DNA from: Azolla caroliniana
Taxonomy: Eukaryota; Plantae; Polypodiophyta
Direction: 5' to 3'
Assembly (NCBI GenBank): GCA_043228905.1
Contig: JBHGNT010000007.1
Location: 18,786,001-18,850,000 of the forward strand
DNA: 64,000 bases
Positions 9,388 to 63,200 of the stretch are shown one piece after another. A model generated the notes under the pieces. That model was not told the origin of the DNA. It worked only from the letters and a program-made list of their open reading frames with translations, and searched no databases. Numbering within the stretch: the first letter of the stretch is position 1; the number at the start of each line of letters is the position of its first letter. The translations under genes and the position numbers were made by a program.

Positions 9388-9972
9388 TTAGTTGTAAAGG
9401 TCACAATCAAAAGAAAGGGTCCAATGAGCAGGTAATGTTGTGTTAAGGTTCATGAGTTTCGAAACAATTGCTCCATGTGCAACAAGAAAGTCACCATTTC
9501 CACCTACAATCGCAAGGGTTGGATTTTGTAAGCGCTCATCTTCTTGCCCAATTACAACAAGAGATCCTGTAAATGGGCCCGAAGAAACCGTGGCCGTGAA
9601 TATGTGCAATAGGACGAAAGCTTGTTGTGAGTTGACCACCCATGAACCTTGTGCAACCCCAATTTGTGTAGAATCTCTAGAAGCACCTATGGTGATGGGT
9701 GACTCAAACATAGACCGAATGCCAAAGTTGTAAGGGTTGGATTGGGACAAGTTGAAGGGTCCCGTACTGTAGACAGCCTCGAAGGCAGAGTTTTTGACAA
9801 CGGCGGAATACATTTGGATGTGCATGTAGAAAATGAAGTTGGCAGGACCTTGTGGTGGCTTACGACGAGCTAACACCAACATTGTGGGATTAAATTGTGA
9901 CATCGATTGCAATAGGATTAAAGCCACCATCAATGGAAAGTAAGTCATCTTGATCATGTCAATCCCTGACAT
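9388..9972 (-). CDS. Dirigent(-like) protein, intronless, secreted
   Basis: Hydrophobic N-terminal signal; dirigent motifs FIFYMH, FG.RSMFESPITIG, IGVAQG, LAIVGGNGDFLVAHG; N-glyc sequons NLS/NTT; start may be ATG 9972 or 9957. Confidence 0.88.
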   Translation of the reverse strand: MSGIDMIKMTYFPLMVALILLQSMSQFNPTMLVLARRKPPQGPANFIFYMHIQMYSAVVKNSAFEAVYSTGPFNLSQSNPYNFGIRSMFESPITIGASRDSTQIGVAQGSWVVNSQQAFVLLHIFTATVSSGPFTGSLVVIGQEDERLQNPTLAIVGGNGDFLVAHGAIVSKLMNLNTTLPAHWTLSFDCDLYN

Positions 9973-10520: not shown

Positions 10521-11990
10521 ATACGATGGAATCTTGATTAAGTCATTCAACCATCGAGGGACACATATGTTAAACCCATTGAACACAAAAAATGTATGCA
10601 ATGAAATTGCAATTAATCATCCACGTAACCTGAAGGCTTTGGTCAATCTAGCATTATCAACTATTAGATATAGTTAATGATAACCTCCAAGTTGTCAGAT
10701 TATCCTCATATGTATTCTTCGAGTGCACATTTTGTGTTAAGTAATATTAGCACAACTTAGCTCTAGATACCTACTTACATTATGTAGAAAGTAAGAGAGG
10801 ATATGTATGTAGTCTCATATTCTTGAACTCGACCAAGGAGTGATTCCCCGATTTATATACTCGTATAGTCTTTTGTAATAATCTTTCCTAATTGATGGGA
10901 AAGTAGGCCCTTTTTTGGAAAAAATGATAATAGTAGCAGTAACTATGTCTAGAGGGCTAGGTCAGATTAAATTAGAAGTCAATTATAGAAAAAGAATATC
11001 CCCACTACTATCAATTTACTTGCATGTTTAATGTAACAATAAGAAAAAAAACATAATATAATATATATGGTTTCTTTTTATCTTATAGTGAGACACTTTG
11101 ACTATTATCTATGACAAATCAATTTATAGACGAGATCCCATCTAAGTTCAAAGGTACGAGTGCACAAAAGGACAACAATTGTAATATACTCTCATGCATA
11201 ATAGAAAGTTCGGATTGACACACATATATATATCTCAATGAGTGTAACTCTATATGCCTATCTAGTCGATGCTCAATATTATCCTAGTTGGGTTGACGTT
11301 TGCATGATCGACCCACACAAGTTTTTCTAACATGATATAAAAGTTGAGACATTGATCTAGATTAAGACTATATAGGTAGCCATTGTCTAGCATAACACAT
11401 ACGCACACACACACATAGATTATGATCACATATGGAGAACAATGAACATCCCCTCATTTCCAAATTATTTTTGAGTTCTTGAGGTATTGGGGGCTATGGT
11501 TTAATTGAAGTATGTGGAACACCTTCACTTTTGATTTGCAAGTTGGGGTGAGAAATATATGTTTTAACGTTAAAAGGACGTCTTTGTGGCAAATTGACAG
11601 TGCTAGAGAAATCATGAAATCTCAATGAACTCTACAAGGTCACATATAATCATATTTGTCATTTGAAATTGTGTGTAGAGTGACATTGAGTTTGTAGTCA
11701 TAGTAGTATTTAGTTCCCTAGAAAGGAACTAAGTAAAAGAAAAAAGAAAAAAAGAGAGAGATTATGATCATGTTAATTGTTCCTTTGTAGGCATACAATG
11801 GGCTTTGGACCACATACGTCTCACCTCATATTTTTTTTAGGGCAAGGTGCAATGTCTCGAGTAATGCTTGATGGGGGAGTTACATCATATATTGCCCTCA
11901 TTAGATTTGTTCGTCACGGAAGCTCAATTAGCCCATTGTTGTCACTCATCAATTGTTGGCGATGTTATCAAATCTTGCAACTAAAGGTCA
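10521..11990. repeat. Direct repeat copy A (partner at 14717-15680)
   Basis: Collinear blocks, e.g. ATGGAATCTTGATTAAGTCA..CAACCATCGAGGGACA and GAGATCCCATCTAAGTTCAAAGGTACGAGTGCACAAAAGGACAA; copy A has extra blocks ~10750-10960 and ~11415-11755. Confidence 0.92.
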
Positions 11991-12410
11991 ACAAAATATG
12001 ATATCATTTTGTGAATAGGTATTCATATGGAGAGTCATGTTTGGTTGGCAACTGTTAGATTTAACCTTAAATAGATGAGGACTAGGGTTAGGTACCTACT
12101 TCTTTTGCACCATTCCATTGGGGGATAACACACATAGGTTCAATAAATGTCCTATAACGCATATAATTTGGAAGTACTTATCATATATTTGGAAAGTTTT
12201 AACCCCTTGCGATTTTGAGGCCTCAACAATGGGTTTTTGTTCAGTATGTTCAAAATGGTACAAATAACAAGGTGGATATATAGCTCCAACCTTTACGATA
12301 TTGGAAGGTAGAGGAGAGTCAGGACTAAGAAGTTGTAACAAGTGGGTTTTACATACAATTAATATAATTGTGTACTTTTAAAAGAGAGAGAGAGAGAGAC
12401 AATGCCCAAA

Positions 12411-12576
12411 TGGATGTACCTCAGTTGGTAAGGTTGCCCAATGGAGACCAGGTGGTCATGGGTTCAAACACGCATCTACGTTTACACCTCTACGCCTACA
12501 TATATGTCTACGTCTACATTTACGCATGTATCTACGAATACACATATGTCTACGTCTACAAATACGCATACGTCTA
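12411..12576 (+). mobile_element. tRNA-derived SINE-like head followed by a degenerate 6-bp (TACRYN) minisatellite
   Basis: A-box-like TACCTCAGTTGG (12417-12428) and B-box-like GGTTCAAAC (12461-12469) at tRNA-like spacing; then TACGTC/TACGCA/TACATA repeats. Confidence 0.5.
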
Positions 12577-12831
12577 AGCCTGGGGAGTTTCTAACTTTCC
12601 ATCACATTGGGCTCACATGTGAATAAGAAAGAAACCATGGCTTCTTACAATACAAAGGGACAGGGTAACCAACTTTACAACCCCCTAATCACATACAAAA
12701 AAAACAGAGTAACCCACTTTAACCCCCCCCCCCCCCCCTTAATCATATGCAAAAAACAGAGGAAACAGGAACAGAGGAGGCCCCAAGGAGCCTACCTATT
12801 ATTAACAGAGGAGGAGAAGGAGAAGGTGGAG

Positions 12832-14469
12832 ATGGGCGATGGCAAGGACAGCAGCAGTTACCTCAGGTCTGTGTGTGAAGAGCCCTCCAACCTATACATC
12901 TTTATGGTTGCCCTAAGGTCATTCTTTCTTGTTCTAACAACGCACCTACTAGCAGGAGAAGTTACTACATCTTTGTCACCATCACCACCATCACCGCAAA
13001 TTCTCACCAAGCTCTCATGGACTCTGAGGTATTTCAACCCACTTAACCTTTCATGGCGCTATTACTCCATTCTCGCATATCGCTCCATAGCTAAAGATTG
13101 GGGCACTAAGCAACTAGCCATGATCAACTATGAACAACACCCTTTCGATCCTCCATTACCTTACATCTATGGAGAGTCTCTTGTTCATGATCTGAGTGTC
13201 CCAAGACTGGAAATGAGTGGGGTTTTTAGCTCTCAAGGCCTTCTCACACTTTCGTGTGCTTACCAAGGCGTGCTAGCGATGCAATATACCATCGCCACCG
13301 AAGGTATATCTTATTTGCCGAATGTTACGGTTCCGCTTGCAATCATGGGCTTCTTTAGGGTTTTGGTCTCTAAATGGGTCGCGAATAAAATTCATGTCGA
13401 TCCATATCCTTACCCTGTTCCCGAAGGGTCACTCCCACCCTCGCAATCACATGATTGGTTAAGGGCATTATGTGGTCAGTTTTCGAGGCCTAATAACTTT
13501 GAATTGACAAGATGGCCCATGTCATCATCTTCCTCATCATTCTCATCTTCATCTTCATCTTCATCCTCTTCATGCTCAACTTCATTGTCATGGTCATCAC
13601 CATCAACATCGTCGACACCATTATTCTCAGTCCCATCAAACAAGTGTACTCGATCACTCTCCTTATTGGACACCCCTCAAGAAGCGGCATCATCCACATG
13701 CTCATCCTCACACATATTACAATCTAACTCCACATTGTCATTGTTATCGTCATCGTCATCAAAATCGAAGATGTCCATACCTTCAAGCTCAAGTGCTCAT
13801 CTTGACTCTGAACAACAAAAGCAATTAGATTCCATTTCGTCAAGCTTGTTTACAATGCCCTCTAACTCTCCATTAACACCATCCTGGACACAAGATAGAA
13901 TACAACGTCCATGTCCTCGACGATTGTCAAGATCACCGTTAAGTAGATCAGTCTCATTTACGTCATTCTCTCCTACAAATGGACAACAGTTCTCATCACT
14001 AACACCGTCCATGAGTCCAACACCATTACTCTTAGAATCAAGAACACCAGATCACACTAGATCTTATAAGCAAGACGACACTCTACATCAATCTTCATCT
14101 TCGATGCGAAACCTTCCATACAATGATTATAGGTCTAACAAATATGTGGTATGTGCATGGTTCATGGTTTTACTTGGCGTCGTCATACTTTCTTGCTTAC
14201 CGTACAAGGTACGGAAGGCATATGGGTACCCAATAAAGTTGTTACTGTTTGCAATGCAATTGTTCTACCAATATATCGCGATAACAATGTTATTTTTCCA
14301 TGGCTATCTATTGTTTAAGGGGCCCCGAGCATTCGCAAACAGAGTCATGTGTTTTGATCATTGGACATTCAAGCTACAAACCATTGGCTTCTATTTACTC
14401 CTAGTTTTTGTGTTGGTAGTCTCTATCATTGATTTTATAAAGCATGGATTTTATCGGAAATGTTTCTAG
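12832..14469 (+). CDS. Intronless multi-pass membrane protein of unknown function (~545 aa) with a central Ser-rich region
   Basis: Uninterrupted ORF (open from 12607; likely ATG 12832, MGDGKDSS) in AT-rich surroundings; about 3-4 N-terminal and 3 C-terminal hydrophobic helices; no TE motifs. Confidence 0.8.
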   Translation: MGDGKDSSSYLRSVCEEPSNLYIFMVALRSFFLVLTTHLLAGEVTTSLSPSPPSPQILTKLSWTLRYFNPLNLSWRYYSILAYRSIAKDWGTKQLAMINYEQHPFDPPLPYIYGESLVHDLSVPRLEMSGVFSSQGLLTLSCAYQGVLAMQYTIATEGISYLPNVTVPLAIMGFFRVLVSKWVANKIHVDPYPYPVPEGSLPPSQSHDWLRALCGQFSRPNNFELTRWPMSSSSSSFSSSSSSSSSSCSTSLSWSSPSTSSTPLFSVPSNKCTRSLSLLDTPQEAASSTCSSSHILQSNSTLSLLSSSSSKSKMSIPSSSSAHLDSEQQKQLDSISSSLFTMPSNSPLTPSWTQDRIQRPCPRRLSRSPLSRSVSFTSFSPTNGQQFSSLTPSMSPTPLLLESRTPDHTRSYKQDDTLHQSSSSMRNLPYNDYRSNKYVVCAWFMVLLGVVILSCLPYKVRKAYGYPIKLLLFAMQLFYQYIAITMLFFHGYLLFKGPRAFANRVMCFDHWTFKLQTIGFYLLLVFVLVVSIIDFIKHGFYRKCF

Positions 14470-14716
14470 TTTTGATTGACAATGAAATGCATGGAAGTTC
14501 TTTCATCAAGCAAGTGGAGGGTAGATTCTCCCTGAATTCATTTAGCTTATTTCTAACATTCACGATGAGCTTTTGAGACATGATAGTTGTTAAAGGGCAT
14601 ATGCTCCTTACCTTGTAATTCAGACAAATACCTTTATTTGACTCTCAATGTATTACCACAAGAAATGAATACCCTTGTAATTTTCCATGGAGAGTGAATC
14701 AAGATGTTTAAGAGAA

Positions 14717-15680
14717 TACAATGGAATCTTGATTAAGTCAGTCAACCATCGAGGGACATATATGTTAGACCCATTGAACACACAAGAAAGACATACAATG
14801 GAATTGTGATTAATCATGCATGGAACATGAAGGCTTTGGTCAATCTAGTATTATCAACTACTAGATATAGTAATGATCACCTCCAAGTTGTCAATTTATC
14901 CTCACATGTATTCTTAGAGTGCACATTTTGTGATAAGTAATATTAGTACTAGTTGTATCGAGGGAGTTACGTTGTATTAAATTATATGTTGATTATGGAA
15001 AGGAATATCCCCACTGATATCAATTTACTTGCACATTTAATGTGACAATAAGAAAAAAACATAATATAATATATGTATTCTCTTTATCTTATAGTGAGAC
15101 ACTTTGACTATTATCTATGACAAATTGATTTGTAGTCGAGATCCCATCTAAGTTCAAAGGTACGAGTGCACAAAAGGACAATCATTATAATATAATCTCA
15201 TGCATAATAGAAAGTTTGGATTGACACATATATATCTCAATGAGTGCAACTCTATATGCCTAACTAGTCGATGCTCAATATTATCCTAGTAGGGTTGACC
15301 TTTGCACGATCGACCCACACAAGTTTTTCTAACATGATATAAGAGTTGAGACATTGATCTAGATTAAGACTATATAGGTAGTCATTGTCTAGCGAAACAC
15401 ACAGTGAGAGAGAAAGAGAGACCTTAATCAATCATGTTAATTGTTCCTTCATTTCTAGGTTAATGCATACAATGGGTTTGGACCACATATGTCTTGCCTC
15501 ATATTTTTATTATGACAAGATGTAATGTCTTGAGTGATGCTTAATCGGGGCATTACATCATATATTACCCGCCCTCATGAGATTTGTTTGTCCAGGAGGT
15601 GCACTTAGCTCATTGTTGGTTTTTGCTATTGTTACTCATCACTTTTTGGCGATGTTATCAAGTCTTGCAATTAATGGTGA
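14717..15680. repeat. Direct repeat copy B (partner at 10521-11990)
   Basis: Same blocks as copy A, in the same order and orientation. Confidence 0.92.
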
Positions 15681-15771
15681 CATCGTGGGCCAATTGGTTG
15701 CACATGTTTTCTACAAATGATTTTTCTTGTTTCTATGAGTCTCATGTCAGAATCTTGAGAAGGGATGCTCA

Positions 15772-18700
15772 TGTGGAGCCAATTTGGAATGTCTAGGATG
15801 GCAGGGATTATGGTCATAAAAAGCTCTATTTTCTTGAGGGAGTTGGAATATAAGACTTATATATTAACATGATGGCTCGTAGGTTTTCATTATTGCAAGA
15901 CATGTGTTTTGATGGCCACCATGTGATGGCAAGGCTTGAAATCATGACCTATGTGTACATATGCCAAGGACTTAACCATTAAACCATCTAATAATCGTAA
16001 GCATTTATTGTAACATGTTAAGAATTAGGTAATTAACTACAGGTTAATTAGCACCTAATTATGTGATTAAGTAGTGGAAGATTATGTGATGTGTGTGTAT
16101 GTATGCAATGTTAGGTGTAAAGGCCCGTAGTTCACAAATTAGGTAATTATTCGTATATGTGAACACATTGTTCACCTGGATAGGACACCTCCTTTTGTAA
16201 TGTGAACACACCTCTTTCTTTGTAGGGTTAACTAATATAATAACCTTTGTTTCTTGTGTACCAATCAAGGCGGTTGGGTACACCCAAAAAAATATGGGTT
16301 TCTACTCTCGTCTCTACTACAATCTTGTTTGCTGAACGTCATCAGTCAATAGCTGCTCCCTCAAACATCTCTCTTTACCTTTAATTGGTATCAGAGCCAA
16401 ATCTCTTTCCTTTGCTTTGCTATTTTTTTAGATTTAGAATCAACAGAAAACACAGTTAAAAAAAAAAACAATTATGTCAGACCCTTTCCTATTGGTAGTT
16501 TGCTCAATTTTCTGAAGGCATCTGTCATAAATCTTGGGAGCAATGGCCTCCACTTCAACTGAAATGAAAAGCTTCTTTGAAATCAAGAGATTTGATGGAA
16601 AAGGTTTCGAATTATGGAAAGCGCGTATGCTGGGTAGCCTCTTTTTGAGAGATTGTGAAGATGCTCTCGTGGAAAAGAAACCAGAGAGCTTGGAAAATGA
16701 TGCTTGGAACACTCTGAATAAGAAAGCCATTACATATATTAAAATGGCTGTTTCTGATGAAATTCTTGTAGATATAAAGGGCTTGATTACTGCCCATCAA
16801 GTTTGGGAGAAACTTAAGACAACTTACGAGAATACTACTCCTGTGAATCAGGTGCATTTGATGAGAAAACTTGTCGATATGAGGCTTGATGAGTCGAAAG
16901 GTGCAACAGAGCATCTATCGTTATTCACATGTACTTTCTCGCAACTACAAGATTTAGGATTACCAGCTTTTGATGTCAAGCTCAAAGCTATCTTCCTACT
17001 TATGACTTTACCCAATTCGTGGGAAACATTAGTTGTTTCATTATCTAATAGCCCCACCTTGACCTTCGATGGTGTGCGGGGCTCTATTCTCAGTGAAGAG
17101 ATTAGAAGACAATCTAGTGGAGAAGGTAGTGGTTCAACATACAATATTAGAGGGAGATATGATAAGAGGAACCGAAATATAGGACAAAGAAATAGAAGTA
17201 AGAGTAGAGGGAAAGGAAAGCAACAAGATATCGCATGCTATCAGTGTGGCCGTAAAGGTCATAAGAAACGTGATTGTAGATTTTGGAAGATGGAACTAGA
17301 AAGGAAGAAAAATGTAGGAGAGAAGAAAAATAAAGATGATAAATTTAATACAATAGAGAAAGCTAATATGGCTTCAAATGTTATCATCGAAGACCTATCT
17401 GGTGAAGATGGTGATGTACTTTGTATTACAGGTGATGCCTTCATAGCTCATGTTCAGAACATGCAAATCACCAAAACAGATGTTATTGATGCTTTATTGT
17501 CAATTGATGATGGATTGACATAGACATGGGTAGTAGACTCTAGGGCTTCTTTTCATGTTACTCCATGTTTGGAGTGCTTTACCACATTTGACACAAGCAG
17601 TTATGGAAAAGTTTATCTTGGTAACAATAGTGCTTGCAATATTGATGGTATTGAAACCATACACTTGTCTTTGGATAATGGTCAAGAGCTCGTGCTCAAA
17701 GATGTTAGGTATGTACCTGGCATTAAGAAAAGTTTGCTATCTGTAGGACAGATGGATTTTCATGGTTACACAACATTATTCGGTGGTGGATTGTAGAAAC
17801 TAAAGAAAGGATCTATGGTTATTGTGAAAGGTTGCAAAAAGGGCACTTTGTACTGTTTGCAATGTAAAGCCAAAAAGGACTTGAAGTCCTTTCTGCTCTA
17901 AAATGATTTGATGTTAAAGGATTAGAGCTGATTTTTTGTAATGATTGTCTATTTGGCAAACAAGTGAGAAATTCTTATTATTCTGGTGTCTCTCGTAAAC
18001 CAAATGTGCTAGATTTGGTGCATTCTGATGTATGTAGCATGCCTGTAAAATCCTTCGGCGGTGCTGCATATTTTATTTCCTTTATCGATGTAGGAAGATT
18101 TGGGTGTACTTGATGAAAAAGAAAGGTGATGCATTTAATGCATTTAAATCTTTTCATGCATTTGTGACTACCCAAAAAGGGACAAAATTGAAAAGTCTCA
18201 GAATAGATAATGGGGGTGAGTTTACATCGGCAGAATTTAAGTCCTATTGTGACTTACATGGTATTAAAAGAGAGTTTACAGCTCCATATAACCCTTCATC
18301 AAATGGGATGGTAGAAAGATATAATAGGTCCTTGTGTGAGCGAGTACGGTGCATGTTGTCCACAGCTAATCTCCCTCATGAATTTTTGGGAGAAGCATTA
18401 AAAACTGTGGTTCATATATGTAATCGTTCTCCCAACAAGTCCTTAAAGAATGGAATCCTTGAGGAGGTTTGGTCTGGCAAACCAGCCTCATATGACCATT
18501 TACGAATTTTCGGTTGTGATGCATTTGTACACATTAGAAGTGAGCTGAGAAATAAGCTCGATGCTAAGTCCACCATGGGCATTTTTATGGGCTATGGTGA
18601 TGAAGGTGAAATGGGCTATAGGATTTGGTTATCTCAATCTAGAAGAATTGTACACAACCAGGATGTTGTTTTTAATGAAGAAAAATTGCTGAAAATTGCT

Positions 18701-38936: not shown

Positions 38937-41900
38937 CTATCTCCCATTACCTAGATGACCATGCTGATACCTTCTCTCCCTTAGATGCCTTATTCTTGCC
39001 TCAACTCGAGCAGTGAAACCAAACGTCGCTTTCTCAACAGCTTTCTTTTTCTCCTTTCGCCACATCTCCGGGTCATCTAGGTCTTGGTTAAGAGATTTTA
39101 TCTCTTGAAGGATGTGATGATCCATAGGCATAAAACGCCTTTGGAATGCTATATAAGCAAAATAAGGAAAAACACATGCGGCGGCCACTAAGAATGTGGC
39201 GATCCAATATCTTGGAGAAGGAGCCAAAGCTTCTAATAGGACATCATAAGCTGTGGTTGATATTGTTGGAGACATAAGACCGAATATAATAAGGAATATG
39301 TACCACATGGCAATACTTCCCCATATAAGAAAGTGTTGAATCACTGTGAAATAGCTTATTGTGAGAGCAATCTGACAATTCACTACCCAAATAATTGCTG
39401 TATACATGGTCGCACCAAACACTTCAAACCCTGATATTTGACCATCCTCTCGGAAAGCTCGATGTCCAAAAATGGTAATTATAATGAAGAATGAGAGCAA
39501 CGAACCAAGAACCCCATTAGCCATCCAAGAAAAGATCCGTGCCCATGTAAAGAACATGTTCTTGGGGCCTTGTTGGTAAATACTCGGAAACTGCATATTT
39601 CAAATAAAGGTCCCAAATAATTGAGTGTCTTATGAAAAGGACACAATTAAGAAATTTATAACAGCATCTTAAACCATTCAGTGGTAGAAATGAAGTGTAC
39701 AGCAATACAAAGTATCAACTAAGTCGATCATAAATTGGCAATGATGAAAAACAATACCTCAAGGCACAGTTTTGCTGGAATATCCTGCTCAAAAACTCCC
39801 AAAGCACAGACAGGTAGGGAAGTAAACAATATGTTGAAAAGTGTCAAAAACCAATCATTATAGAGAGTCTGGCCAGAATAATTTGTGTAAGCTTCGTAAT
39901 AGAAAAGTGTCAGTCCAAAGACAATGTTCTTGTAGAAAAAATAGCAGATCTGCACAACAAACTCTCATAAGAAACGAACACTAAACGTATTCATGAAACA
40001 AACTCAACTAGTCTGAATAAAACCATTACCATGGTTGCAATCCTCTTGTAGCACCAATGACCATGAACAATGAGGAGGCGTTCAAGGAAGCAGAATTGTG
40101 CAATTGAAAAATCACTTGCCATCACTGCCTGCCAGAATTAGATAAACAGCCTTATGCTCACAATTCTCCAAACTCTTAAAGCAGAATAGTGAATGTAATA
40201 TATATACCTGCATGCCTTCAACCCCACTGATACCAACACCAATATCGGCTTCTTGAATCATGCCAACATCATTTGCGCCATCACCAATTGCCAGAGTGGT
40301 CTTCCCTGTACCTTCTTTTACTAATCTGGTTACCTTTGAGAATTAAAGAACAAACTCAATCTGTTTATATCAATAAACCCCAAAGAATCTGGGATCAAAC
40401 ATAGGAAAGAGCAAAAGACTGTTTGTAAACTACCACCCAAACTAAGGACAACTAAAAGAGCGTGTATGACAAAATAGTTAAGAAAGTTTTATCTCACCGA
40501 CAGATAAACGTGTTATTAATCCATTTGCCAAAACCATATATTGTCTAAATTCAAACCCTAAATCCAGTGGATTTTCCATTCTTCAAGCAATCACAACTAC
40601 ATCAAGTTCCTGATTGTGACTATGTCTTAACAGCCTTGATATTAGAAACTACAATAAAATAGCACTGAAACTAGGCTTATATTGTTGAAACAGGGTAGAG
40701 CCAAGAGAGCACATCCATTGTCAAAATCAAAGCGTCACATGGGACACATTTCAGGCTGGAGAATGGGGTCAAAATCAAAATGGAGATTCCCTGTTATGAT
40801 GAGAGGGGAGTCTGAAAATATGGTCATTCACTGTGACTATCCTCACTTTTGTTACTCTCATTCTCAATCATTTATGGCGGTTCCTATGGGTAGCTTGAAA
40901 TTTATGATGAAACTTGTCAGATCAAAAACCTAATTTATGATGTGAGAAAATACAGTTGGTTGGAGAAAACAAGATAGTACCAAGGCTTTTTGCTTTGGTG
41001 AAACACGGCAACATATCACTGATGCACACTTCACAGCAAGCTGTAAGAACCTCTCTTTCATGTCATCTTCCAAAGCATATGCTAGTGATTTTCCATCAAT
41101 GATTAGTGCAAAGGCCATATCAGAACCTGGCTCCAGGCTCACTGCTTGTTGTCCATTTGCAAGTTGGTTCATTACAGCCTCCTTAGAAACCTGAAAATCA
41201 AAGAATTATTTTGAAACCATACAAAGATTATCGATAGCATTAGACATTCTAAGTTTTCAGTTTTAAAGATTAAATAATGGAAGTAATATAAATATCAAAT
41301 AACACCTTCATCAATGCATCCTTGTCATTGAGATCTTCGGCTGACTTGACAACAGGAATATCTAATGTGACAAGAAGCTGTTTCATGTCTTGCCTGAGCA
41401 GACTACATGCAAATCTGCATGCATTAAGAGGGAATACCATAATATTGAGTCATTATACAGAGAATACATTCCAGTGCATGTGCAATTGAAGTACTAATGA
41501 CACACATGAAAATCTATGCCAATCACTATATAATGTAACATACCCAATGTTGATAGCTGTCTCCAACTTATCCCCTGTTAGAACCCATATCTTAAGCCCA
41601 GCAAGAGCAAGTTTATCTATACACTCCGGCACCTGAATACACATGTTATGAGTGTTTGGTTTCATTAGCTTCTACTCAATTTTGAAATCCAATTACTAAC
41701 CCCCTTTTGCAGTTTGTCTTCAACAGCTGTTGCACCAACAAGGAACAACTCTTTTTCTATCATGTCTGATGCCTCATCAAGCTTAGCATCCCTACCCGGT
41801 CCCATTGCAGTTTTTGCATTCAAAAACAGTTCATTCCATTGTTGATAAGAACTTTCGTCGAGCTTCCGGTAGGCTAGAGCAAGTGTTCGTAATCCTGCAT

Positions 41901-44753
41901 CCCCATAATTAGTGAGGTGCGCCTTTGTGGCCTCCTCAAACTCTCTGCCAGCTTTACTAAGCCTCTCAAAGATCACACTGTGTAAAAAAAAGAATTCTCT
42001 TGGACACAATCTTTAAAAAATATAACGCATATTCATTGTAGTGCTTAACTATAGAGAATTGTTAAATGCAATTCCACTTACCTATCTGCACCCTTACAGA
42101 ATACATAAATTTGACCATCTTCATCACGAACTACCACAGACATTCTCTTCCTAGTACTATTGAACTCCAATAAGTTGAGTAGCTTGTATTCACTGTTGAC
42201 AAAATGTTTCAGCAAAAAAGACTCTAATTTCCCCTTACTAGAGGGTGTGTGCATATGTGTGTGTTTGTGTCATTGCACTACATTTTCTAAAATAATCTCA
42301 GTTTCCCTATAAAATCTCTTAGTCAGCCAATGCATATGACAAAGAATAAGTTACTCCTCACCGTTCAACCAACCGGCCTGATTGATCACATTCTCTGATG
42401 TACACCCCATTTTGAGTTCGTTTTGTAAACTCAAAACCAAGTTCTCTGGCTGCAACCACAAATGCCCCCTCATCGGGCGACTCTGCCTCATAAGTAATCC
42501 TACCATCATCATCTTCTTCTGGTATAGCTGTCTGGCAAACAGAGAGAATGCGTAGAAACATTTGAATTACCTCTGGCTTAGCTTCAAGCGCCCATTTTCC
42601 ATTCATGATTCGTTTGTCATAGAAGTTGAATCCTTTCACATGGGGCATGTCTGCCATTTCAATCCCTTCGTTGTCATCAACCTTCATTGGGATTTCAGAG
42701 GGAATATCACTAATTATTTGATCATTCTTTTTCATCCTCTTAGCAGTAGCTTTCTCCACTTCAGTAACCCCCACTCCATAAGAGACTCCAGCTATAGAAG
42801 CTTTTAAGAAATCCATTTGATTACAAGTCAGAGTTCCGGTCTTATCTGAAAGAATTGTATCGACTTGGCCAAGTTCCTCATTTAGATTCGATGTACGTGA
42901 ATGAGCTGGCTTATCAGTTTCTTCATAGTACATGTGGATGTCTTGGTCTATTAACCTTGCCTGAAATAGCTTAACAACTTCTAACGAGATATAAAGCGAG
43001 ATCGGAATGAGGTACCCATACAAGATAAGGGCAGTAATAAACTGATAAAATGCAGATAAAACAGCATTATTTGGATTGAAGTCATTGGATGTATTATCTG
43101 GGCGCATATACCACCAATTCGGCATGTCGAGTTTTGTCCTTATCCCAAACACTATTGCTCCAATGACGGAAATAAGCAGAAGCACACTGAACAGAAAATA
43201 AACGATATAATCCATTCTCCGCTCAATCCTGCTCCTCTTAGAGGGAGGATCCGTTGCATTCTGCATAACTTTCGTTTCATGGCCACTGAAGATCACAACA
43301 CCATACACATATTGTGTATTCCGAAGCTTGGAATCCCTTAGCAAGATTTGTTGTGGACCTAGTGACAAGGTAGCACCATCATACTCTATATTGCCAACAA
43401 AACTGTAGAGGTTCGGATTGGGGTCCTCGCACCGAATAATCCCAACAAATTCAGCAAAATTATCATCCCCTTCTAGTTCCAAGGTGGGTTCGAGTGTTTT
43501 CTTCAACTTCAAGTTGGTCTCTCCATCTAGATTCATGGTTTCCACATAGCAAACGCCATCAGGATAGCTTGATGAAAGCATAAGAAGATCTGCTGGAAAG
43601 AATTGATCTCTCTGGACCTGAACTACATCTCCAACTCGAATATGTTGCCATTCGACGTCAACAAACTTCCCATTGTTGGAATGCACCTTTACTTTCCGAT
43701 TGTTTACTTCATTATCCTGGAAAGGTCATGGACACTAGTCAATAATAGAATGGCAATGACCATAATGTTGACAGACATAAATCATTCTATGCAAAATGTT
43801 TCTTCCTAGTTTACAGTAATAGGACAATATGAGTCAATATTACAAACTAATAGGCATATGGCAGACAAACTATACATGTCTGCCAGATTTCATTCCCTTA
43901 AATGTATATTTCCAACAAGCAACTTGAAACCAACAACCGGCATTTTAGTAAAGTAAGATAATATGGAGCAATGAGATAGTGCAGAAAAAATATCTATTTT
44001 TTTCACATTTTGTTTCTTTTTAAGCATTTTTTCAGTTAAATTACTTCAAAAATCTAGGCAAAATTAAGTGAATAATACAAGGGGCGATAATATATTACAA
44101 TTTCCTTCCTTAGCCAACAAACCCAACCTGCATTTTTGTGATATAATAGGAAATTAGGAGAAAATACTACAAGAATTATAAAAGTAGACCAGAAACTGAA
44201 ACTTTACAATTGGCATTAGGCACTTTTTTCCCAGAGCATTTACATCCGATACAAATAACAATACTAACTCATATACTGAATATAATTACCATTAAAAACA
44301 CAAACACTGCAAAATAACCAATAAAAATACCTGCAAATATCTTCGCCAATCTTCAATAGCTTCCTTGAGCATACTAACTCCCACCACAAAAGCAAGTGGA
44401 AGAATGACTGAGGTAGCAGAAAACGGCGTCAATGGTGTGAGAGACAAAGCTGCAGTCATAAGGAAATACAAATTTGCAACCCTTCGAAACTGCTCAAACA
44501 AAGCTTTAGGTAAAAATGTGACAATATTATATTTTGTGGTGGAAACATAGTTATCTCTATATTTGAATGGCTTTGATTTATGCCTTCCTGGTTGATTACA
44601 AAAAACAACTCTAGAGAATCCAGGACCTCCTAAAGGAACTAAATCATCTGCTTCCAATACTGTTGGCCTTACACATGCATATGAGTAAAGCTTGCTTAGT
44701 CTTAGCTTTCCTTTCCTCTTTTGATCTTTCCGATCTTCCTGTTTCGGGGGCAT
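38937..44753 (-). CDS. ALA: P4-type ATPase / aminophospholipid flippase (ALA family), 11 coding exons: 44753-44331, 43716-42362, 42192-42082, 41977-41701, 41632-41544, 41414-41306, 41190-40981, 40333-40208, 40128-40030, 39949-39758, 39590-38937
   Basis: [31 protein letters not shown], phosphorylation motif [33 protein letters not shown]; GT-AG borders read for each intron. Confidence 0.97.
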
Positions 44754-51198: not shown

Positions 51199-53631
51199 TT
51201 AGCTATTCACATCATGATATACAGTTTCCAATACCCAATGCAAATTTGTGGGACACGATTGGTGGGATAATATATTCTGATCATCTCCTAACTTTGCATT
51301 ATTGCACATATTTGGTTGACACTTACTATAATTTGTATTAGTTTGCACCCTCAAAGCATTCATTTCAATTACTTCGGAATGCATACCCGACGCAGCACAT
51401 ATGTTTCCCATGAAGACATATGCAGAACCACATTCTCCATTCATTCGCACTGATTGCTCAAAAGCCCACATCCCAACCTCGGTGTTTACCCATTTATGGC
51501 ATGCACCCAAAAGAACTAACCATAGTGGAAGACGATCAGAAGATTGAACTGTCTCAATCACAGCAATAGCTTTATCAAAGTGTCCTGATCGGCTAAAAAG
51601 ATCGACCATACACGTATAGTGTTCTAAATTCGGAGTGAGTTGATAAATGATGCTCATATCATTGAAGAGTGTTTGTCCTTCTTCCACGAGCCCTGCATGG
51701 CTACAAGCAGTTAGCATAATGAGGAAAGTAACTAGATTTGGCACAATACCTTTTCCCCTCATTTTATTGAACAGATTCAACACTTCTTTTGCGTGTCCTA
51801 GCTGAGCATAGCCAGCCATGAGTGCATTCCAGGGTACAACATCTTGTATAAGAAGTGTATCGAATACTTCTTGTGCTTTTACAAGCACACCACATTTGGC
51901 ATACATGTCTAGCAATGCTACGCCGAGGACGAGGTTATCTTCTAGCAACATTTGCTTCATGACTTCCTTATGTATCTCGCCTCCAGTGTTCAGAGACCCT
52001 ATGTTTCCACAAGCTTTCAAGATGGAAACAAAGGTGATTGCATTAGGGGAGACACCTTCGGCTTGCATTCTATGGAAGTATTTCACTGCTTCTTCACCGT
52101 AACCATGTTGGGCATAACCAGACACCAAGGCACTCCAAGATACAACATTCCGCTCTGGAAGTTCATCGAATACTTCTTGGGCCTTAATGAGAACCCCACA
52201 TTTCGCATACATATCCACCAATGCAGTGCCAAGCACCATGTCTCCCAATAACCCCTTTTTCTTCACTTCACCATGGATCTCTTCCCCCATCTTTAGAGAT
52301 GCTACACTGCTGCAAGCCTTCAAAATGCTTACAAAAGTGACAGTGTTAGGGGAGAGACCCTCATCTATCATTCTCTTGAAGCAATTTAACGCTTCATCAG
52401 CATATCCATGTTGGGTGTACCCAGCAATCAATGCAGTCCATGATACTACATTCCTTCTTGGAAGATTTTCAAATACTTCTCGTGCTTTCACAAGCACACC
52501 ACATTTGGCATACATGTCGAGCAATGCTGTGCCAAGTACTACATTTTCTTCTAATAACCCTTGCTTGTTAGCTTCTTTGTGTATTCTCTCTCCCACTGCT
52601 ATGGACCCTATGCTCCCACAAGCTTTCAAAATGCAACTAAAAGTTATGGCATTGGGAACAAACCCTTGATCTTGCATAAGCTCAAAGCACTTTAATGCTT
52701 CATGGCTACACTCATGTTGAGCATAACCAGCAATTAATGCATTCCACGATACAATATTCCGTTTAGGAAGCTCATCGAACACTTCCCTTGCTTTTCCAAG
52801 AACCCCGCATTTGGCATACATATCCACTATAGCCGTGCCGAGAATGATATTCTCGTCTCTTAATAACCCTTGCTTGTTAACTTCAGCATGTATATTTTCT
52901 CCGGTTTCGAGAGACCTTGTATTGCCACATGCTTTCAAAACGCAACTAAAAGTAACCACATTTGGAGAGGAACCCTCATCTTTCATATGCTCGAAACACA
53001 TTATGGCCTCATTACCCAGACCATGGTGGACATATCCACTGATCAATGCATTCCAAGTTATGACATTACGAGCAGGCATCTCATCAAATACTTGACGAGC
53101 TTTCCACATGACCCCAAACTTAGCATACATATCGACCAATGAAGTTCCAAGCACAACATTGTCTTCCAAAAGACCCATCTGTCTTATCTCACCATCTATT
53201 TCTTCTCCGATCTTGAGAGACCCAATCATGATACATGCTTTCAAAAGGCAACCAAATGTGAATGCATTTGGAGAGACACCTTTATCTCTCATATACATAA
53301 AACATCGAATAGCTTCATGGCCAAAACCATGATGTGCATAGCAAGCAATAATCGCATTCCAAGATTCAACTGTGTGCGTAGGAAGTTCACGAAAAACTCT
53401 TAATACATCTTCAATAGCACCACATCTAACATACATATTAAGCAAACCATTGCTTATCCTAAGATCCTTGAGGAGCAAATCTGTGTTGACAATATCGGCA
53501 TGTATCCTTCTTGCTTTGAGCAGATCCTTTTGTTTCCCACAAGTTTTCATAAGACCGAGAAGGAGGTAGGGATCTGGGAAGTGAAGAGTTGTGGAGACAT
53601 TCTCTGATTTGACATAAGAAACATGGAACAT
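51199..53631 (-). CDS. PLS-class pentatricopeptide repeat protein with E domain, no DYW; intronless, 810 aa
   Basis: Six P-L-S triplets (DMYAKCG / SWNALIAGY / [10 protein letters not shown]), [41 protein letters not shown]. Confidence 0.96.
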   Translation of the reverse strand: [810 protein letters not shown]

Positions 53632-57260: not shown

Positions 57261-60200
57261 CTATGGTACAATCACGAAATCTTGCTCATTTGCTCGTCGG
57301 TACAAAATCACTGAAGCCTCCAACCTGACGAAAAAAACAGCAATCAAGTCATTGATTCTTACATAGGTAGAATCAAATTTAGATATGGATGAATTTCTAA
57401 AACTCCTTGATTTTTTGCTATTTAGCAGAAAATCTGTTAAGTTCCCAAAATTACCAGAATGCTATTATGTCTTAATAGTGGGAATTTCTGGTAATTTTAA
57501 AAAACTTAAAAGGTAATTTGGTGCTTTTTTCTTCCGCTTGTCAGGGTTGGCCTGGTGGTTCAGGCAATGGCCTCTGCTAAAAAGCAGTAGATCGAGGGTA
57601 CAACTACCTACCCCCCCACAGAGGGGGTAACCAATAAGAGAAAATTAACTGAATGGGATTGTGATCTATTATCTAATGTACTCACCAACTAGGCCTAACA
57701 ACAAATCTGCCAGTAGATAAGGCCCAATTGACCTGAAAATCACACGGTTGGAAAGCCAAATCAGATCATAATACAAGTTACTGCTAAGTTTCCTTTATAA
57801 TTACTTTCATAGACATTACCTTGTCAGTCCCTAGGGAAATTGCCACCACATGCGTAACACTGTCATCAATGGCCATGGAGCATATGGCACCGAATTGTTC
57901 AGCTAGCTGCCAGAGTGGGTGTAGGTGAGGCTGAATCTCTCCTTGGGGGAAAACTCTACTAAATATAAGCTTACAACCATTTAAAACCCTCCGTTGCTCC
58001 TTTGCGAGAATATCACGCACATCAACTTGATGAAGCCTTGGCTTTGAGAAAAATTCATAATGTATTTTCTCAATTACCTGAGATTTAAACATGTGATTCT
58101 CTACTGATTGCTGAATGAAGGATTGCTAGTAGATACATATATACATAGACCAAAAAGTAAATAGGCTAACCGTCAAAGCTGATGCCAACATGCCATCTGG
58201 TTCCCTCTCATCATGACCCACTTCGAGAAGTGATGGACCCGGCAAACCAAATTGCTTTCTACTACAAGGGAAGTACATGTACCTATGGAGATCATTTACA
58301 GCAATTCAAACATAATTACTTGCAAACATGCAATGCAGCAATGTTGTGATCAACAAACCAACGAGATTTCACCTTTCCACGACAATAAGGTTATGTCTGT
58401 GGTGTGGCCAAACACGTGCTGAATCATCGATAATGACTACAGCTGATTCCATTCCCAGCACACCATCCAAATCTTTGCTTTTGGGAGGTCTTTCATCTCC
58501 ATCAGACACATCTCCATCATCACCCTTGGAAATTACCCTCCCAGCGAACAAAACCCCAGTGGGATCAAGAAGTCTCGCCATCTCTGTTGCATAAGCTTTG
58601 TTGCCCATTGTGTAGACATGAAGCTCATATAATTGGCTAGCCTACAAAAAAATGAGGGAAAATCAAAGAGAACGCAAAGTTTAGCTATACTGCCAAATTT
58701 CTGAGATCGCTGTGCTTCAATGATTATTACCACTTTTGATGCAGGAATGACAACTAAATACATGTTAATTTTGTAAAGCCCGGGGCATATACAAACAAGC
58801 ATCAGCATGAATGAGAGAGAGAGAGAGAGATGAAAGGTGTGATAAAAGAAAGCAAGCACATAAGAAACCAGGTTTAAGAACTAGAAATATGTCTTACCAG
58901 TGAGTGTCTACATTACACATGGCATCCCATCTCAAAGTAGAAAAAATGTCAGGCATAAAATGAACTAGATGTTATGGCATCCATCCACGTATCACCAGTA
59001 TGCCCAAGGAGTTGAAGGTGCATATATCAGCATTTGCATTATAGTGAATGAGAGAAAGGCATGAAAAAGCATAATGAAGGAAAGCAAGCACATACATAAC
59101 CAAGTTTAAGAGGTAGAAATATGAGTACAAATCCACACAGCACAAGGCATCTCATCTCAAGGAGAAATCACTTCGTGCAAAGCATGCAATATGGCATGCC
59201 TCCACATATAATCTGTATGCCCAAGAGGAGCTGAAGGTGCATATATCCGCATTCATATAATGTAATGCTAACTATATGAAGCATCCCACTGAGATTCTAA
59301 TTTCTACCATTTCTAAACAGTGATGACCAGACTTTCCACCCATGATGGAAAGATAGCACTGAGTAACAGAAAGACAAATTTGATATTACAAGTACAAATA
59401 CATATACAAATATGTCCAGATTTGAACTAATAAAATAAACCACCAAATATGATGTCTAATATAAGGTTTTTACCCTTGCCAAAAAGTTCCATATGCCAGG
59501 ACGTAGCTTTGTCCACATGCTCATGTGGGGAAAGCGATATAACTCACGTTTGTTGCCTTCCTTACCAAACTTAGCACGCTCTGTCATTTCATTCACCCGC
59601 AACTTGCCTTCCCATTCCTCTTCAATTTCAGCAAACTAGAAATAGCAAAGGACGTCCACTTAAGACAAGCCCAATTAACCTACAAACTGAAAGGAATAAA
59701 ATTTTCCAATACCTTAGCTGAATTAAGAAGTGTATGGTCAAGGTCAAGAACCAAGCATAGCTTCTTGGCAACAAACATTCTGGTTTGTTCCTCTATTCTT
59801 CTTGCTCTTTCTTGTCTAACTGCTTGCTTTCGTTTCTCATCAAGACCCTCAAGAAGTGGTTCTAAATTATTCCAATGGTTTATATTTTCTGATTGTTTAG
59901 GAGCTGCTGTTGAGACGCTTCCATTCAAGTCCAAGTTACTTGCTACATTGCTGGCAGACACTTTACTTGCAACACCAATAGGTTTGCTGATACTTGAAAC
60001 ATCTTCAACCCTACTCCCATTTATAGTTGAATCAATATCTTGAGATGGGTCATTGCCTTCAAGTAAAGGTGATGTTTCATCATTGTTAGGAGAGGATATA
60101 AGCTTCCCCTCAGCTACAAAAGAATCAATTGCAGCAATGTCTGCTTTTGAATGAGTCATCGGGTTTATGGTCATTCCTGATGGTGTGGTAATATTACCTT

Positions 60201-63200
60201 TCACAGGTAATAATATTTCCTGGTTGTTGGACTTTTCAACAGTACTTCCAAGCAGCACTCGTCGAGGGTCCCTTGGTTTCATTCTTGGCTTAGAGGAATC
60301 AGTCTGGAAAGAAAATGCCAAGCAATCCAATAAGAAAGAGAGAGAAAGAGAAAGAGATTACAGTCAGTTATTTTGAATACACCGTAACAAAAAAATAACA
60401 AAAGAGTGCCTTGAAAATATAATTAAAAACCTACTGGTGAATCCGAAGATGCATTGGGCAGCTTATGTTGTGTCCTTCTTAGTATAGATGTCTTATCATC
60501 CATAAAACTCTGTTTGATATTGTCAGTAGAAGCAATACTTTGCACTAGTGGAAGGTCATCTCCATCCTTAGCATCTGCGACAGGCTTCTGTCTTTTCGTA
60601 GGAACTTCTTGGCTTAACAATTCAAACTGTCTTTTTCGTTGAGAAATTTCACCAGATGAATCTGCACGCATACGTAATGTTTCATCATCTAAATCGATAT
60701 TTGTCAAGGTTTCGGGTATAGCCGGCATTAACCCTTGTTCTGATGACCATACTCCTGCTGTTCCCAATGTTAAAAGTGAAACTAGTTCACCTTTGAGCAA
60801 AGGATTATTTTGACATGCTAGAAGATCTTCATGCTTCTTCGCAGATATCATTTCAGTAGAAAGTTTTTTTGGACCTTCACTTTGTGAAATATCTCCTTCA
60901 AAAGCATGATTAACTAATCTTCTTCTCGGATCTCGACTCTTTTTTGCAAGCATTAACTTTGTTTGATGTCCATCTGGGTCCATATCTTCCACTCGAGCAA
61001 CAGGCAGCACAGAGCTCGGAAATAGCTTTAATTCAGTGTAAGAGACTCTGTTACCACTACTAATGCTACTGCTATCTTGTTGAGGAACATTTGATAATGG
61101 GAAATTTTGTTGTTTACCTTGTGATACTTCACTCTTCCTCATATTTCCTTGAATTTCACTAGTATCAGGATTGAGCCTAGAAGTCTCAAGCTGATTATTC
61201 ACAGTTGCATCGTCATCTTCATCTGAAGGCGTTGGACTCGGCAGTCGAGTATAACCAGTATGAGATTTTCCGGCAAATTTTTCATGATATGAAGTGAGAG
61301 CTTTGACAGGATCAATATTGGGTACAAATCTATCATTTTTTATGGTAGAAACTTGTACCTCCCTTGTATGGATATTAGTCATTCTAGTCTCTGCACTGCC
61401 TCCTAATGCATGTGTTGGATAGCTTTTACTTATGCCATCTTGAAAAGTCATGGGATGGCATCCCAAGTGTGTCAAATTTGTGGAAATTTGGTTTGCAATC
61501 GGGGTCACATTAGAGAAGCTTATGGCCTCTTGATAATTCATGGCATGGTTGGCAATCGGATTCAAAGTAGCAGAAATCTCCCTTGGAAAAGCGTAACTTT
61601 GAGCCTCATAGTGTTCTTGTGGGATGGAAGAAATCCAACCACCAAGACCTATATTTCCTGCCACATTAGTATTGTCTACAACATGAATATTGTTGTTAGC
61701 AGGAATAATGCCTGAAAGATGCCTTTCGGCATCGGTGGTTGATATTTGCTCTGTTTCAGTCCTACCATTGGCAGAGGTATCAGTACTACTATCACTTTCA
61801 AGCTGCGTTGTTGCTGATGTATTACATGATGATTCGCCAAACCTCCATTCCTTATCTTCTCCCTTCTCAGATTCTAATCCCTTTGAATATGAGTTTGGCA
61901 TGTAATCTCCCTTATTTAGACATCCAAAGGATGACATTATGGAATCAAGCTGCAGGAAATACATAAAAAAATAAGAATTCTGCAATTCACAAACTAGCCT
62001 TCTCTCATGACTGAATAATAAAATTGCTCAGACCTCTTGGATTTGCTTGGATGTGAAAAGACTTTGGCATCTGTTTCGGGCAAGGTCTAATAACCTAAAT
62101 AATTGTTGAAAAAAAAGTGATAATTAAAATTATTCGACAAAATATAAATGTAAAACCTAAGTTTTATATGATAGAAAACCTCGGAAATGCTTCTGTCCCC
62201 TCATTTTGCATTCTTCCAATAGGAGTGCTCCAAACCTACAAAAAAGCGCCCAAAGCATCAGACTTCAAGATCCAATGCTTTTACAATAAAAATAGATTAA
62301 AGAGCTCACTCACCTCATACGCAGCTCTTATTCCAGAGAAGACGTCTCTTGTGAATGCAATAATTTTCCTTTGATACCCTTCTGAATGCTTGAATTGTAG
62401 AACTCTTTTATTGAGATCTCGAAGAATCTTAACTGCCCTTCGTAGTTGCTTACAGACGGTCATAAAAGAACTGAAGCAAATGGGTTGAATGATTAGAATA
62501 GAAAGGCTTCATTCTCTAAAATAAGCTATGAATAGCCAAACATTTATTAGTTATATATAACAGTTTCTAACTCACTTTTGGGCATCTTTGACACTAACAT
62601 TCCTAAGCAACTCATTACATTCTGCAAAAAGCTTGTCTTTGAGTGAATCTGACATGATGTAAACGTGATCAAAAGCGTCGGAATCCCTCCTACCCTTGAG
62701 ATTGGATTGTGGAAATGACATATCCAATGGATTTATTTCTCTTCCTTTTGAATACCTTGCTGGTTTATCAGACCCCACGGCACCTATTTCAGCTAGCATT
62801 CCTCTCTTCCCTTCTCTCTCTCCCATTTCTAGATTCCTTTCGCCTCGTGCGCTTCGAAAATCCCTCTTTCTACTATCCTTAGCATATCTAACAGAATCTG
62901 ATCGCCTTCGGTATCCCTTGTCTAGTATCGAACCTCGTCCTTCCGGAATATTTCTATACTTCTCCTCCATTTTATTGTTTGCATTCTTTGACATATTTGA
63001 TCTTTCCGAGATTCCTTTGTTGCCTCGTCCTTTCCCCCATTTTACATCAGATTGTTCTCCTCCATCTTGCAAATAAATAAAACCATCATCACTTCTCAAG
63101 AAGCTAACATATTTCATGCCTTGATCACCCACAATCCATCCACTTTTGCTTTCAGCGATGAGGTCCATGTCCTTATTCCCAGACCAGGATGAAGACTTGA

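Follow-up and report, generated by a model that had tools for sequence, protein, structure and literature searches.

We describe here a gene at 12832-14469 (+) of a 64-kb window of the Azolla caroliniana genome (64,000 nucleotides, contig JBHGNT010000007.1, positions 18,786,001 to 18,850,000 of the forward strand; all coordinates below are those of the window). This gene encodes a predicted membrane protein of 545 residues and belongs to a fern family related to an unnamed family of Pezizomycotina fungi. The relationship is very probably due to horizontal gene transfer between a fungal and a fern lineage, not to descent with loss, and a fungus-to-fern direction is fairly likely. For the full reading we have a modest preference: the gene would be a working member of a fern family gained once, long ago, from Pezizomycotina, and its product a six-pass protein that moves or handles a small anion or a lipid head group.

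An intact open frame without introns

A frame scan revealed a stop-free + frame at 12595-14469 in which the ATG at 12832 opens the 545-residue protein, uninterrupted to 14469. The initial annotation had described an intact open reading frame (ORF) of about 545 codons at this place, and all five motif blocks that it quoted are indeed present. Among 300 shuffles of the region 11001-16000, the open run had a maximum of 199 codons and a mean of 103. A second in-frame ATG at 12637 (+) would give a protein of 610 residues, i.e. 65 residues more. Since the N-termini of the homologues align with the Met at 12832 and none of them covers 12637-12831, since a 93%-identical protein from ENA begins at the equivalent Met, and since one sequencing run carries a 1-base deletion at 12751, the zone 12637-12831 is likely 5' untranslated region (UTR) rather than coding sequence.

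No splice joint was found in the contigs of four sequencing runs guessed to be RNA, in line with the initial description of the gene as intronless. The proposed architecture was also confirmed, with hydrophobic helices followed by a Ser-rich loop (residues ~200-432) and three C-terminal helices. Pfam assigned no family to the protein at E ≤ 1 and detected no transposable element (TE) domain, so the absence of a recognisable family and of TE motifs holds as well. At the curated cut-offs, 0 of 48 family members matched Pfam and 0 of 37 matched NCBIfam. No second copy of the gene family was found within the 64-kb window. The reverse strand of the Ser loop was considered as a possible gene and rejected: it gives a D/E-rich reading, but stops interrupt the frame.

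Homologues in ferns and in Pezizomycotina

When residues 15-230 served as query, 17 proteins of 50-65% identity were obtained, ten of them named (from Adiantum capillus-veneris, A. nelumboides and Ceratopteris richardii), three from EukProt and four from Logan; a profile search listed 20 proteins, including four new ones, all of the same kind. Several of these fern homologues sit on Adiantum or Ceratopteris contigs of 158-201 Mb, and adjacent locus tags in Ceratopteris (24G028700/029100/029200/029700 and 07G082900/083000) indicate tandem copies. Contrary to what had been supposed, the gene is therefore no orphan, since paralogues and orthologues place it in an old fern family. Identity among fern members has a median of 49.5% and goes down to 34%. 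The members fall into two size classes, compact (~300-330 residues) and long (~520-570 residues), which differ by a low-complexity insert at a single site after the third transmembrane helix (TM3). Two trees were built, one with FastTree and a quick one with IQ-TREE (46 of 129 fern and fungal rows, loop 3 dropped). In the FastTree tree the 18 fern-type rows form four groups with support, and the window protein sits with the long forms (support 99), whereas in the IQ-TREE tree it is the first fern branch, of zero length; because of this disagreement its exact place in the fern tree is unsure. Two Ceratopteris proteins, KP509_07G082900 (P0018) and KP509_24G029200 (P0022), have C-terminal parts that diverge in a frameshift-like manner and, judging from their alignment, are possibly decaying tandem copies. 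Here and below, KP509_ tags are taken to equal the Ceric. identifiers of the same number, by convention.

The fern profile was then compared with 1.84 billion (1.84e9) representative proteins by HMMER, which gave 52 matches at E ≤ 0.001: eight fern-type proteins at 113.7 bits or more, one fern-like fragment of 67 residues, and 43 fungal-type proteins at 35-56 bits (best fungal E 4.9e-10), with no match between 113.7 and 55.7 bits. When 29 of the 43 fungal-type clusters were looked up, five carried organism names, namely Hyaloscypha hepaticicola, H. finlandica, Xylariales sp., Periconia macrospinosa and Botryosphaeria dothidea. The recorded lineage of Hyaloscypha is Pezizomycotina; the other named fungal genera are assigned to classes by their usual classification. 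A fungal profile built from 37 members matched 173 proteins; among the matches listed (the best 120 of 173), 46 are named and all belong to Pezizomycotina genera, including Mollisia, Phialocephala, Fusarium, Hypoxylon, Zopfia and Podospora. The Pezizomycotina membrane-protein family to which the initial annotation had likened the protein is thus real, and its consensus agrees with the quoted blocks. In Atlas, where the window protein itself is absent, the nearest clusters to an Adiantum member are unnamed and mostly Ascomycota (0.91-0.93), while a fungal member as query led to no named cluster of use and to no structure.

Alignment of the fern and fungal profiles by hhalign gave a probability of 99.4% (E 5.6e-22) over 267 columns, colinear across the whole compact protein. 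In the reverse direction, a fungal-only hidden Markov model (HMM) scored the window protein at 66.7 bits (E 1.5e-13 at library size), whereas 500 local shuffles keeping the hydropathy pattern reached at most 17.9 bits and the reversed protein -4.7. The match is thus significant over the full length both from fern to fungal proteins and from the fungal profile to the window protein, although the best plain BLASTP score against a fungus is 53.9 bits. N69, P70, R76 and R176 are invariant in the 129 fern and fungal rows (18 fern, 111 fungal), and H38, W75, Y77, Q145, G146 and W182 are nearly so. Collectively, these profile comparisons show the fern and fungal families to be homologous along their full length. 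The fungal family is represented by 66 metagenome loci, 46 of them full-length; since 37 of these 46 have a single open frame, being intronless is characteristic of the fungal family also. Motif scans gave 8 and 44 pattern matches in GTDB genomes and 10 in viral contigs, none of them confirmed as relatives, and plasmids yielded no relative either; these scans depend on a conserved motif that distant relatives could escape. One fungal protein of 741 residues (P0246, Botryosphaeria dothidea KAK7701958.1) joins a family member to a C-terminal half that looks like an oxidoreductase. It is probably a gene-model fusion, the other members of its cluster being 354 residues long.

Probable transfer between kingdoms and its direction

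No named plant other than ferns was found among the profile-search matches, and in the annotation row of Ceric.07G083000 (supplementary tables, PMC13434465) the columns for Arabidopsis, Physcomitrium, Marchantia, Selaginella and rice are empty. The fungus-to-plant acquisition put forward initially stands in so far as the best non-fern matches are fungal and the named plant members are ferns only. The expected nesting in a fungal clade did not appear: the stem is long, its attachment has support 0 and the tree has no outgroup. Since this nesting could not be shown, the fungus-to-fern direction is only inferred. The fern clade itself has support 100 in the tree without outgroup. The His of TM5 (His490) could provide a hint, occurring in 18 of 18 fern rows, in 12 of 19 rows of the fungal group containing PMD26118.1 and in 5 of the 92 other fungal rows; it may tie the ferns to that one fungal group. 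The dominant fungal orders of fern and lycophyte roots include Helotiales and Pleosporales (PMC10278937), which makes contact between ferns and such fungi plausible. In the favoured scenario, a donor gene without introns would have been inserted as DNA, and duplications would then have produced at least four paralogue lines in ferns; a cytosolic Ser-rich loop, possibly a phospho-regulatory insert, would have been gained by the long type.

Several points weigh against this scenario. Fern-fungal identity is only 14-26% (median 19.5), the medians being 42.5 between fungal and 49.5 between fern members, and the closest single fungus is 23.8% identical, so that no close donor is at hand. The fern-fungal stem, of ~4-5.6 changes per site, exceeds the depth of either set and joins, in an unrooted tree and with support 0, between the group of H. 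hepaticicola PMD26118.1 and the other fungi. Most matches are unnamed, ~8,000 candidates were scored, the fern-type rows from Logan, ENA and EukProt carry no taxon, and the databases cover non-seed plants to a limited extent; given this limited sampling, members in lycophytes, bryophytes or fungi outside Pezizomycotina may exist. In addition, the differences used to assess selection (see below) mix alleles, paralogues and species.

The very long stem, the lack of any intermediate sequence and the unsupported position of the fern clade at the base of the sampled fungi could equally reflect an unsampled donor (other fungi, a protist or a mobile element) that passed the gene to ferns, or to both ferns and Pezizomycotina, in which case the two families would be sisters. 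We consider this rather unlikely, since no third group appears in the 52 matches from 1.84e9 proteins, the motif scans of GTDB genomes and viral contigs confirmed none, and the TM5 His is shared with 12 of 19 rows of one fungal group versus 5 of 92 others. The opposite direction, in which the family would have originated in ferns or vascular plants at an early stage, then reached an ancestor of plant-associated Pezizomycotina and expanded there, would accommodate the diversity of the fern paralogues (down to 34% identity) and the unrooted tree. It seems improbable, given that named non-fern plants have no member of the family and that the fungal members occur, with many paralogues, in Leotiomycete, Sordariomycete and Dothideomycete genera. 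These three classes are older than the named fern lineages (Pteridaceae).

An identity of ~20% is typical of very old orthologues, and the sensitivity of HMMER stops near 35 bits; one could therefore envisage a very old gene of eukaryotes, passed on by vertical descent, which all other plants, fungi and protists have either lost or changed past recognition. Such a history would require many independent losses, and closer plants should outscore fungi, yet the interval from 113 to 56 bits is empty. The Ceratopteris row without a match in Arabidopsis, moss, liverwort, lycophyte or rice, and the largely intronless state of both the fern and the fungal side, also argue against vertical descent, which we regard as very improbable. 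Finally, the gene is physically part of the plant genome. Its neighbours in the window are of plant type by Pfam (a dirigent and a pentatricopeptide repeat (PPR) protein with an E motif), its homologues occur on fern contigs of 158-201 Mb, and its G+C content at third codon positions (GC3) is 0.40, with 0.27-0.44 in host genes and 0.48-0.92 in the fungal loci. Although the gene lies between repeats and near Copia elements, fungal contamination or a transposon-derived frame has a negligible probability, since the gene is 59-65% identical to fern genes located on chromosome-scale contigs and ~20% identical to any fungus, has a host-like GC3 and contains no TE domain.

Selection and expression

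Selection was estimated from the 40 differences with the best support out of 281. Among these, 37 lie in the ORF and 22 of the 37 are synonymous; outside the Ser loop, 14 of 23 are synonymous (p 1e-4), corresponding to a rough ratio of nonsynonymous to synonymous change (dN/dS) of 0.2. All six indels listed in the ORF are multiples of three, as against none of six outside it. The selection suspected in the initial annotation is thus supported by the synonymous excess and in-frame indels, and the expression of homologues fits too. Between 13617 and 14160 the runs carry two versions of the gene, one near-identical and the other ~90% alike with in-frame indels, so that the gene has a counterpart, be it an allele, a homeologue or a paralogue.

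Four runs that were found using the gene itself and are guessed to be RNA (X4, X6, X9 and X13) gave contigs spanning ~12660-14750. X4 and X6 do not cover the dirigent gene, and X6 covers a Copia element as well; the DNA runs X1 and X2 have similar depth on the gene and on the unique flanks. Together the runs give a weak hint that the Azolla copy is transcribed. In Ceratopteris, according to the supplementary tables of PMC13434465, Ceric.24G029700 is 'notch-specific', with more than 1 fragment per kilobase per million (FPKM) in the gametophyte notch only, 24G028700 and 07G082900 are low-level notch candidates (FPKM < 1), 07G083000 is developmentally regulated in sporophylls, and 24G029100 appears in the all-gene list only. 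Since the notch list contains 7,817 genes, the presence of three of five family genes in it is a weak pattern. Taken together, the selection estimate and the regulated expression in Ceratopteris support a function for the family.

Predicted structure and topology

An AlphaFold2 model based on 10 fern-type rows reached a mean predicted local distance difference test (pLDDT) of 58.9. With a different lead sequence, a compact Adiantum member, and the 129 fern and fungal rows, pLDDT rose to 87.6 and the predicted template-modelling score (pTM) was 0.88. This value, obtained from a joint alignment led by a fern member only, fits one shared fold. Residue positions of the window protein were transferred from the Adiantum model by alignment. 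The model contains six long helices and, between TM1 and TM2, two shorter amphipathic helices linked by an N-P motif, with lower hydrophobicity and a higher moment. Lys and Arg are concentrated in loops 1, 3 and 5, and the sequon of the fern loop 2 is conserved. On the fungal side, 23 of 37 N-terminal extensions of at least 22 residues resemble signal peptides, and the C-tails contain a mean of 1.7 sequons and 2.5 Cys. The protein is accordingly predicted to span a secretory-pathway membrane six times, with both termini outside (N-out/C-out), and this predicted topology would place the Ser loop in the cytosol. The features of the gene, as derived from the ORF, the alignment and the model, are as follows.

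12832-14469 (+): coding sequence without introns, 545 residues, long (Ser-loop) member of the fern/Pezizomycotina six-TM family (ORF, homology)
12637-12831 (+): in-frame extension from the ATG at 12637, likely 5' UTR (no homologue aligns)
12874-12876 (+): Cys15, in 16 of 18 fern rows, predicted luminal, putative partner of Cys544 (alignment)
12883-12954 (+): predicted TM1 (residues ~18-41), ending in His38-x3-Gly42 (model, alignment)
12955-13230 (+): predicted cytosolic or interfacial subdomain, residues 42-133 (model, alignment)
13231-13293 (+): predicted TM2, holding Q145-G146 (model, alignment)
13321-13329 (+): N164-V-T sequon in the short loop 2, predicted luminal (alignment)
13330-13380 (+): predicted TM3 with P168, G173, invariant R176 and W182 (model, alignment)
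13429-14127 (+): Ser/Pro/Thr-rich low-complexity loop 3 (residues ~200-432), predicted cytosolic (alignment)
14140-14208 (+): predicted TM4 (model, alignment)
14242-14313 (+): predicted TM5 with His490 (model, alignment)
14362-14445 (+): predicted TM6 (W-x-F/Y-K-x-Q-T ... D534) (model, alignment)
14461-14463 (+): Cys544, after TM6, aligned to a fungal Cys (alignment)

The His of TM1 is found in 18 of 18 fern and 110 of 111 fungal rows. The subdomain 42-133 is the most conserved part of the protein in ferns and fungi, with W63, N69-P70, W75-R76-Y77, R84, W90, A96, N99 and S133. Loop 2 carries a mean of 0.78 sequons per fern row. Loop 3 is only 20-30 residues long in the compact fern paralogues, and the indels of the long loop are all in-frame; this loop is likely a regulatory insert added in ferns.

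Foldseek found no match at E ≤ 0.001 in PDB and BFVD (E ≥ 0.14). The best row of VIA-align against 48,161 chains, among rows occupied by G protein-coupled receptors (GPCRs), had a Z of 5.1, with a root-mean-square deviation (rmsd) of 5.0 over 168 aligned residues, which falls under the 7-8 typical of unrelated models. Judged by the predicted model, the fold is one without a clear solved relative, which is no proof of a new fold. A sequence search of PDB brought up Orm2 for part of the C-terminal half, at a best E of only 0.025, and this candidate was set aside as hydrophobic noise. A homodimer prediction that left the alignment unused scored 0.01 and is evidence neither way. Mean-field couplings (252 rows, effective 156) are noisy; the top pairs fit TM5-TM6 and inner-face packing, and no conclusion rests on them.

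Possible function

Twenty-one columns are invariant or nearly so in both kingdoms. Placed on the predicted topology, 15 of them lie on the cytosolic face, five in mid-membrane (Q145, G146, G173, position 174 and R176) and one on the luminal side; H38, N69, R76, Y77, Q145 and R176 are the conserved polar residues among them. Together with the His, Asn, Arg and Tyr close by, the buried Arg and Gln could constitute a pocket for a small anion or a phosphate-bearing head group, which, by the predicted topology, would open to the cytosol. On the basis of these residues and the predicted topology, solute transport or lipid handling is the role that we tentatively favour. It is preferred over a sensor because a gene kept after a jump between kingdoms probably needs no partner.

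Some observations weigh against this role. Pfam, NCBIfam and fungal synteny provided no clue to transport or catalysis, and no conserved neighbour was found across 29 fungal locus groups, where the scan covered ORFs of at least 170 residues, 45 of the 66 loci and 91 of 142 ORFs. Moreover, a conserved inner face combined with a variable outer face fits a receptor too. Indeed, a sensor, or a non-self or defence membrane effector with variable outer loops and a cytosolic output domain, is a possible though doubtful function that would be compatible with the transfer. Besides the conserved inner face and the variable outer tail bearing Cys and glycans, it is favoured by HET-domain genes that adjoin a family member in 4 of the 29 independent fungal locus groups. 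HET is a cell-death effector domain (PMC4986451). An NLR-type NPHP3_N gene, an ankyrin protein and two PTH11-like (Fung_rhodopsin) genes adjoin other fungal members, and the best, though weak, structural rows are GPCRs. The PTH11-like family is expanded in Pezizomycotina. Against such a function, the HET neighbours are a raw count from the scan of ORFs of at least 170 residues described above, and neighbours differ between locus groups; the GPCR rows (Z ≤ 5.1, rmsd ~5) lie within background and the model has six and not seven TMs; and a partner-dependent receptor would be less likely to be retained after a kingdom jump. The HET, NPHP3_N and ankyrin neighbours lie at L015:3891-5663, L025:7028-8917, L047:615-2957, L050:377-1561, L030:4118-5173 and L016:2185-4059.

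Neighbouring genes and repeats

A dirigent-like single-ORF gene lies 2.7 kb upstream (9388-9972, -), and the DNA runs show a second copy of it, ~90% alike. A PPR protein of 810 residues with an E motif is encoded in a single ORF at 51199-53631 (-). Exons resembling a P4-ATPase (38937-44753, -) and a CTD-phosphatase (59680-63978, -) were identified by eye, and the window also contains Copia and LINE remains. The gene is bracketed by direct repeats of ~1 kb, which have deep coverage in the DNA runs and no obvious LTR ends.

10521-11988 (+): upstream copy of the ~1-kb direct repeat, with two insertions (repeat comparison)
14716-15678 (+): downstream copy of the same repeat, 77-89% identical (repeat comparison)

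These repeats could be what is left of a tandem duplication or a gene capture, or the same repeat may have inserted twice; they are young relative to the gene family and stand outside the transfer argument. At ~12410-12470 there is a short element of very high depth, with many loose ends at 12467, which appears tRNA-derived by eye (A/B-box-like). ARAGORN found no tRNA in it, and it is probably the head of a short interspersed element (SINE). A degenerate 18/24-bp tandem repeat (12489-12590) lies immediately upstream of the gene.

Relation to known families and transfers

The closest known system is the unnamed Pezizomycotina family itself (PMD26118.1 of Hyaloscypha hepaticicola, KAH8768559.1 of H. 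finlandica, PVI00821.1 of Periconia macrospinosa, FG05_11110 of Fusarium graminearum), which is uncharacterised and has no Pfam entry. The fern and fungal proteins share six colinear helices, the elements H..G, NP, WRY, R, W, N, S, QG, P..GL.R...W and Y/K, and a terminal Cys, and their genes are mostly single-frame. A block FW...GWDGSE, an IPC motif and a glycosylated C-tail of ~65 residues belong to the Pezizomycotina proteins and are replaced or absent in all fern rows, so that the ferns form a distinct subfamily; some Pezizomycotina members have a signal peptide whereas the fern proteins have none. Conversely, the ferns add an N-terminal Cys and, in the long type, the Ser loop of ~230 residues. 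PTH11-like/Fung_rhodopsin proteins (PF20684) and class A GPCRs are also helical membrane bundles and supply the weakest-level structural rows, but the fern protein has six predicted TMs, both termini outside, a C-tail predicted to be luminal and no PF20684 match.

Among the transfers into ferns described in PMC9477723, PMC6786969 and PMC12448838, those of Tma12, an aerolysin-like protein, phenolic acid decarboxylase and squalene-hopene cyclase are bacterial, and neochrome came from a hornwort. As portrayed there, these genes are, like the present one, restricted to ferns or patchily distributed, lie between plant flanks, have expanded in tandem and, in Ceratopteris, are expressed in specific tissues. 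Their donors, however, are bacteria or plants, their domains are known and their trees nested, whereas here the relatives are fungal only, with no known domain or matched fold and with a tree whose fern attachment lacks support. Fhb7, which passed from Epichloe, a plant-associated ascomycete, to grasses (PMC12448838), and FitD in Cycas are likewise plant genes with microbial nearest relatives; both are soluble and of known families, unlike the fern protein, which is polytopic, far more diverged and common to several fern families.

No main-text mention of the Ceratopteris gene identifiers or of FGSG_11110 was found, and topic searches on the family were empty too. The Ceratopteris identifiers are also absent from the searched supplements of PMC9477723 and PMC12862073, and term searches in 10.1101/2024.08.27.609851, PMC12501142 and PMC9667741 met no such family. 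The family thus seems unreported as far as the literature could be searched; a supplementary table of horizontal gene transfers may nevertheless list it. The kind of event is known; what would be new is a donor among fungi in the case of ferns, together with the class of protein and a fold without match.

For the complete picture, i.e. an ancient fungus-to-fern transfer of a multi-gene membrane family with a fold absent among solved structures, a fern-only loop and a use in notch and frond, the chances appear evenly balanced. If it is true, fungi would be a new donor kingdom for gene gain by ferns, and a membrane family would have been kept and expanded across fern lineages. Since the best BLASTP score of the protein against a fungus is as low as reported above, BLAST-based transfer screens could miss such transfers. 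The finding would also bring to light an undescribed protein family that ferns share with plant-associated ascomycetes and whose confident model resembles no solved structure clearly.

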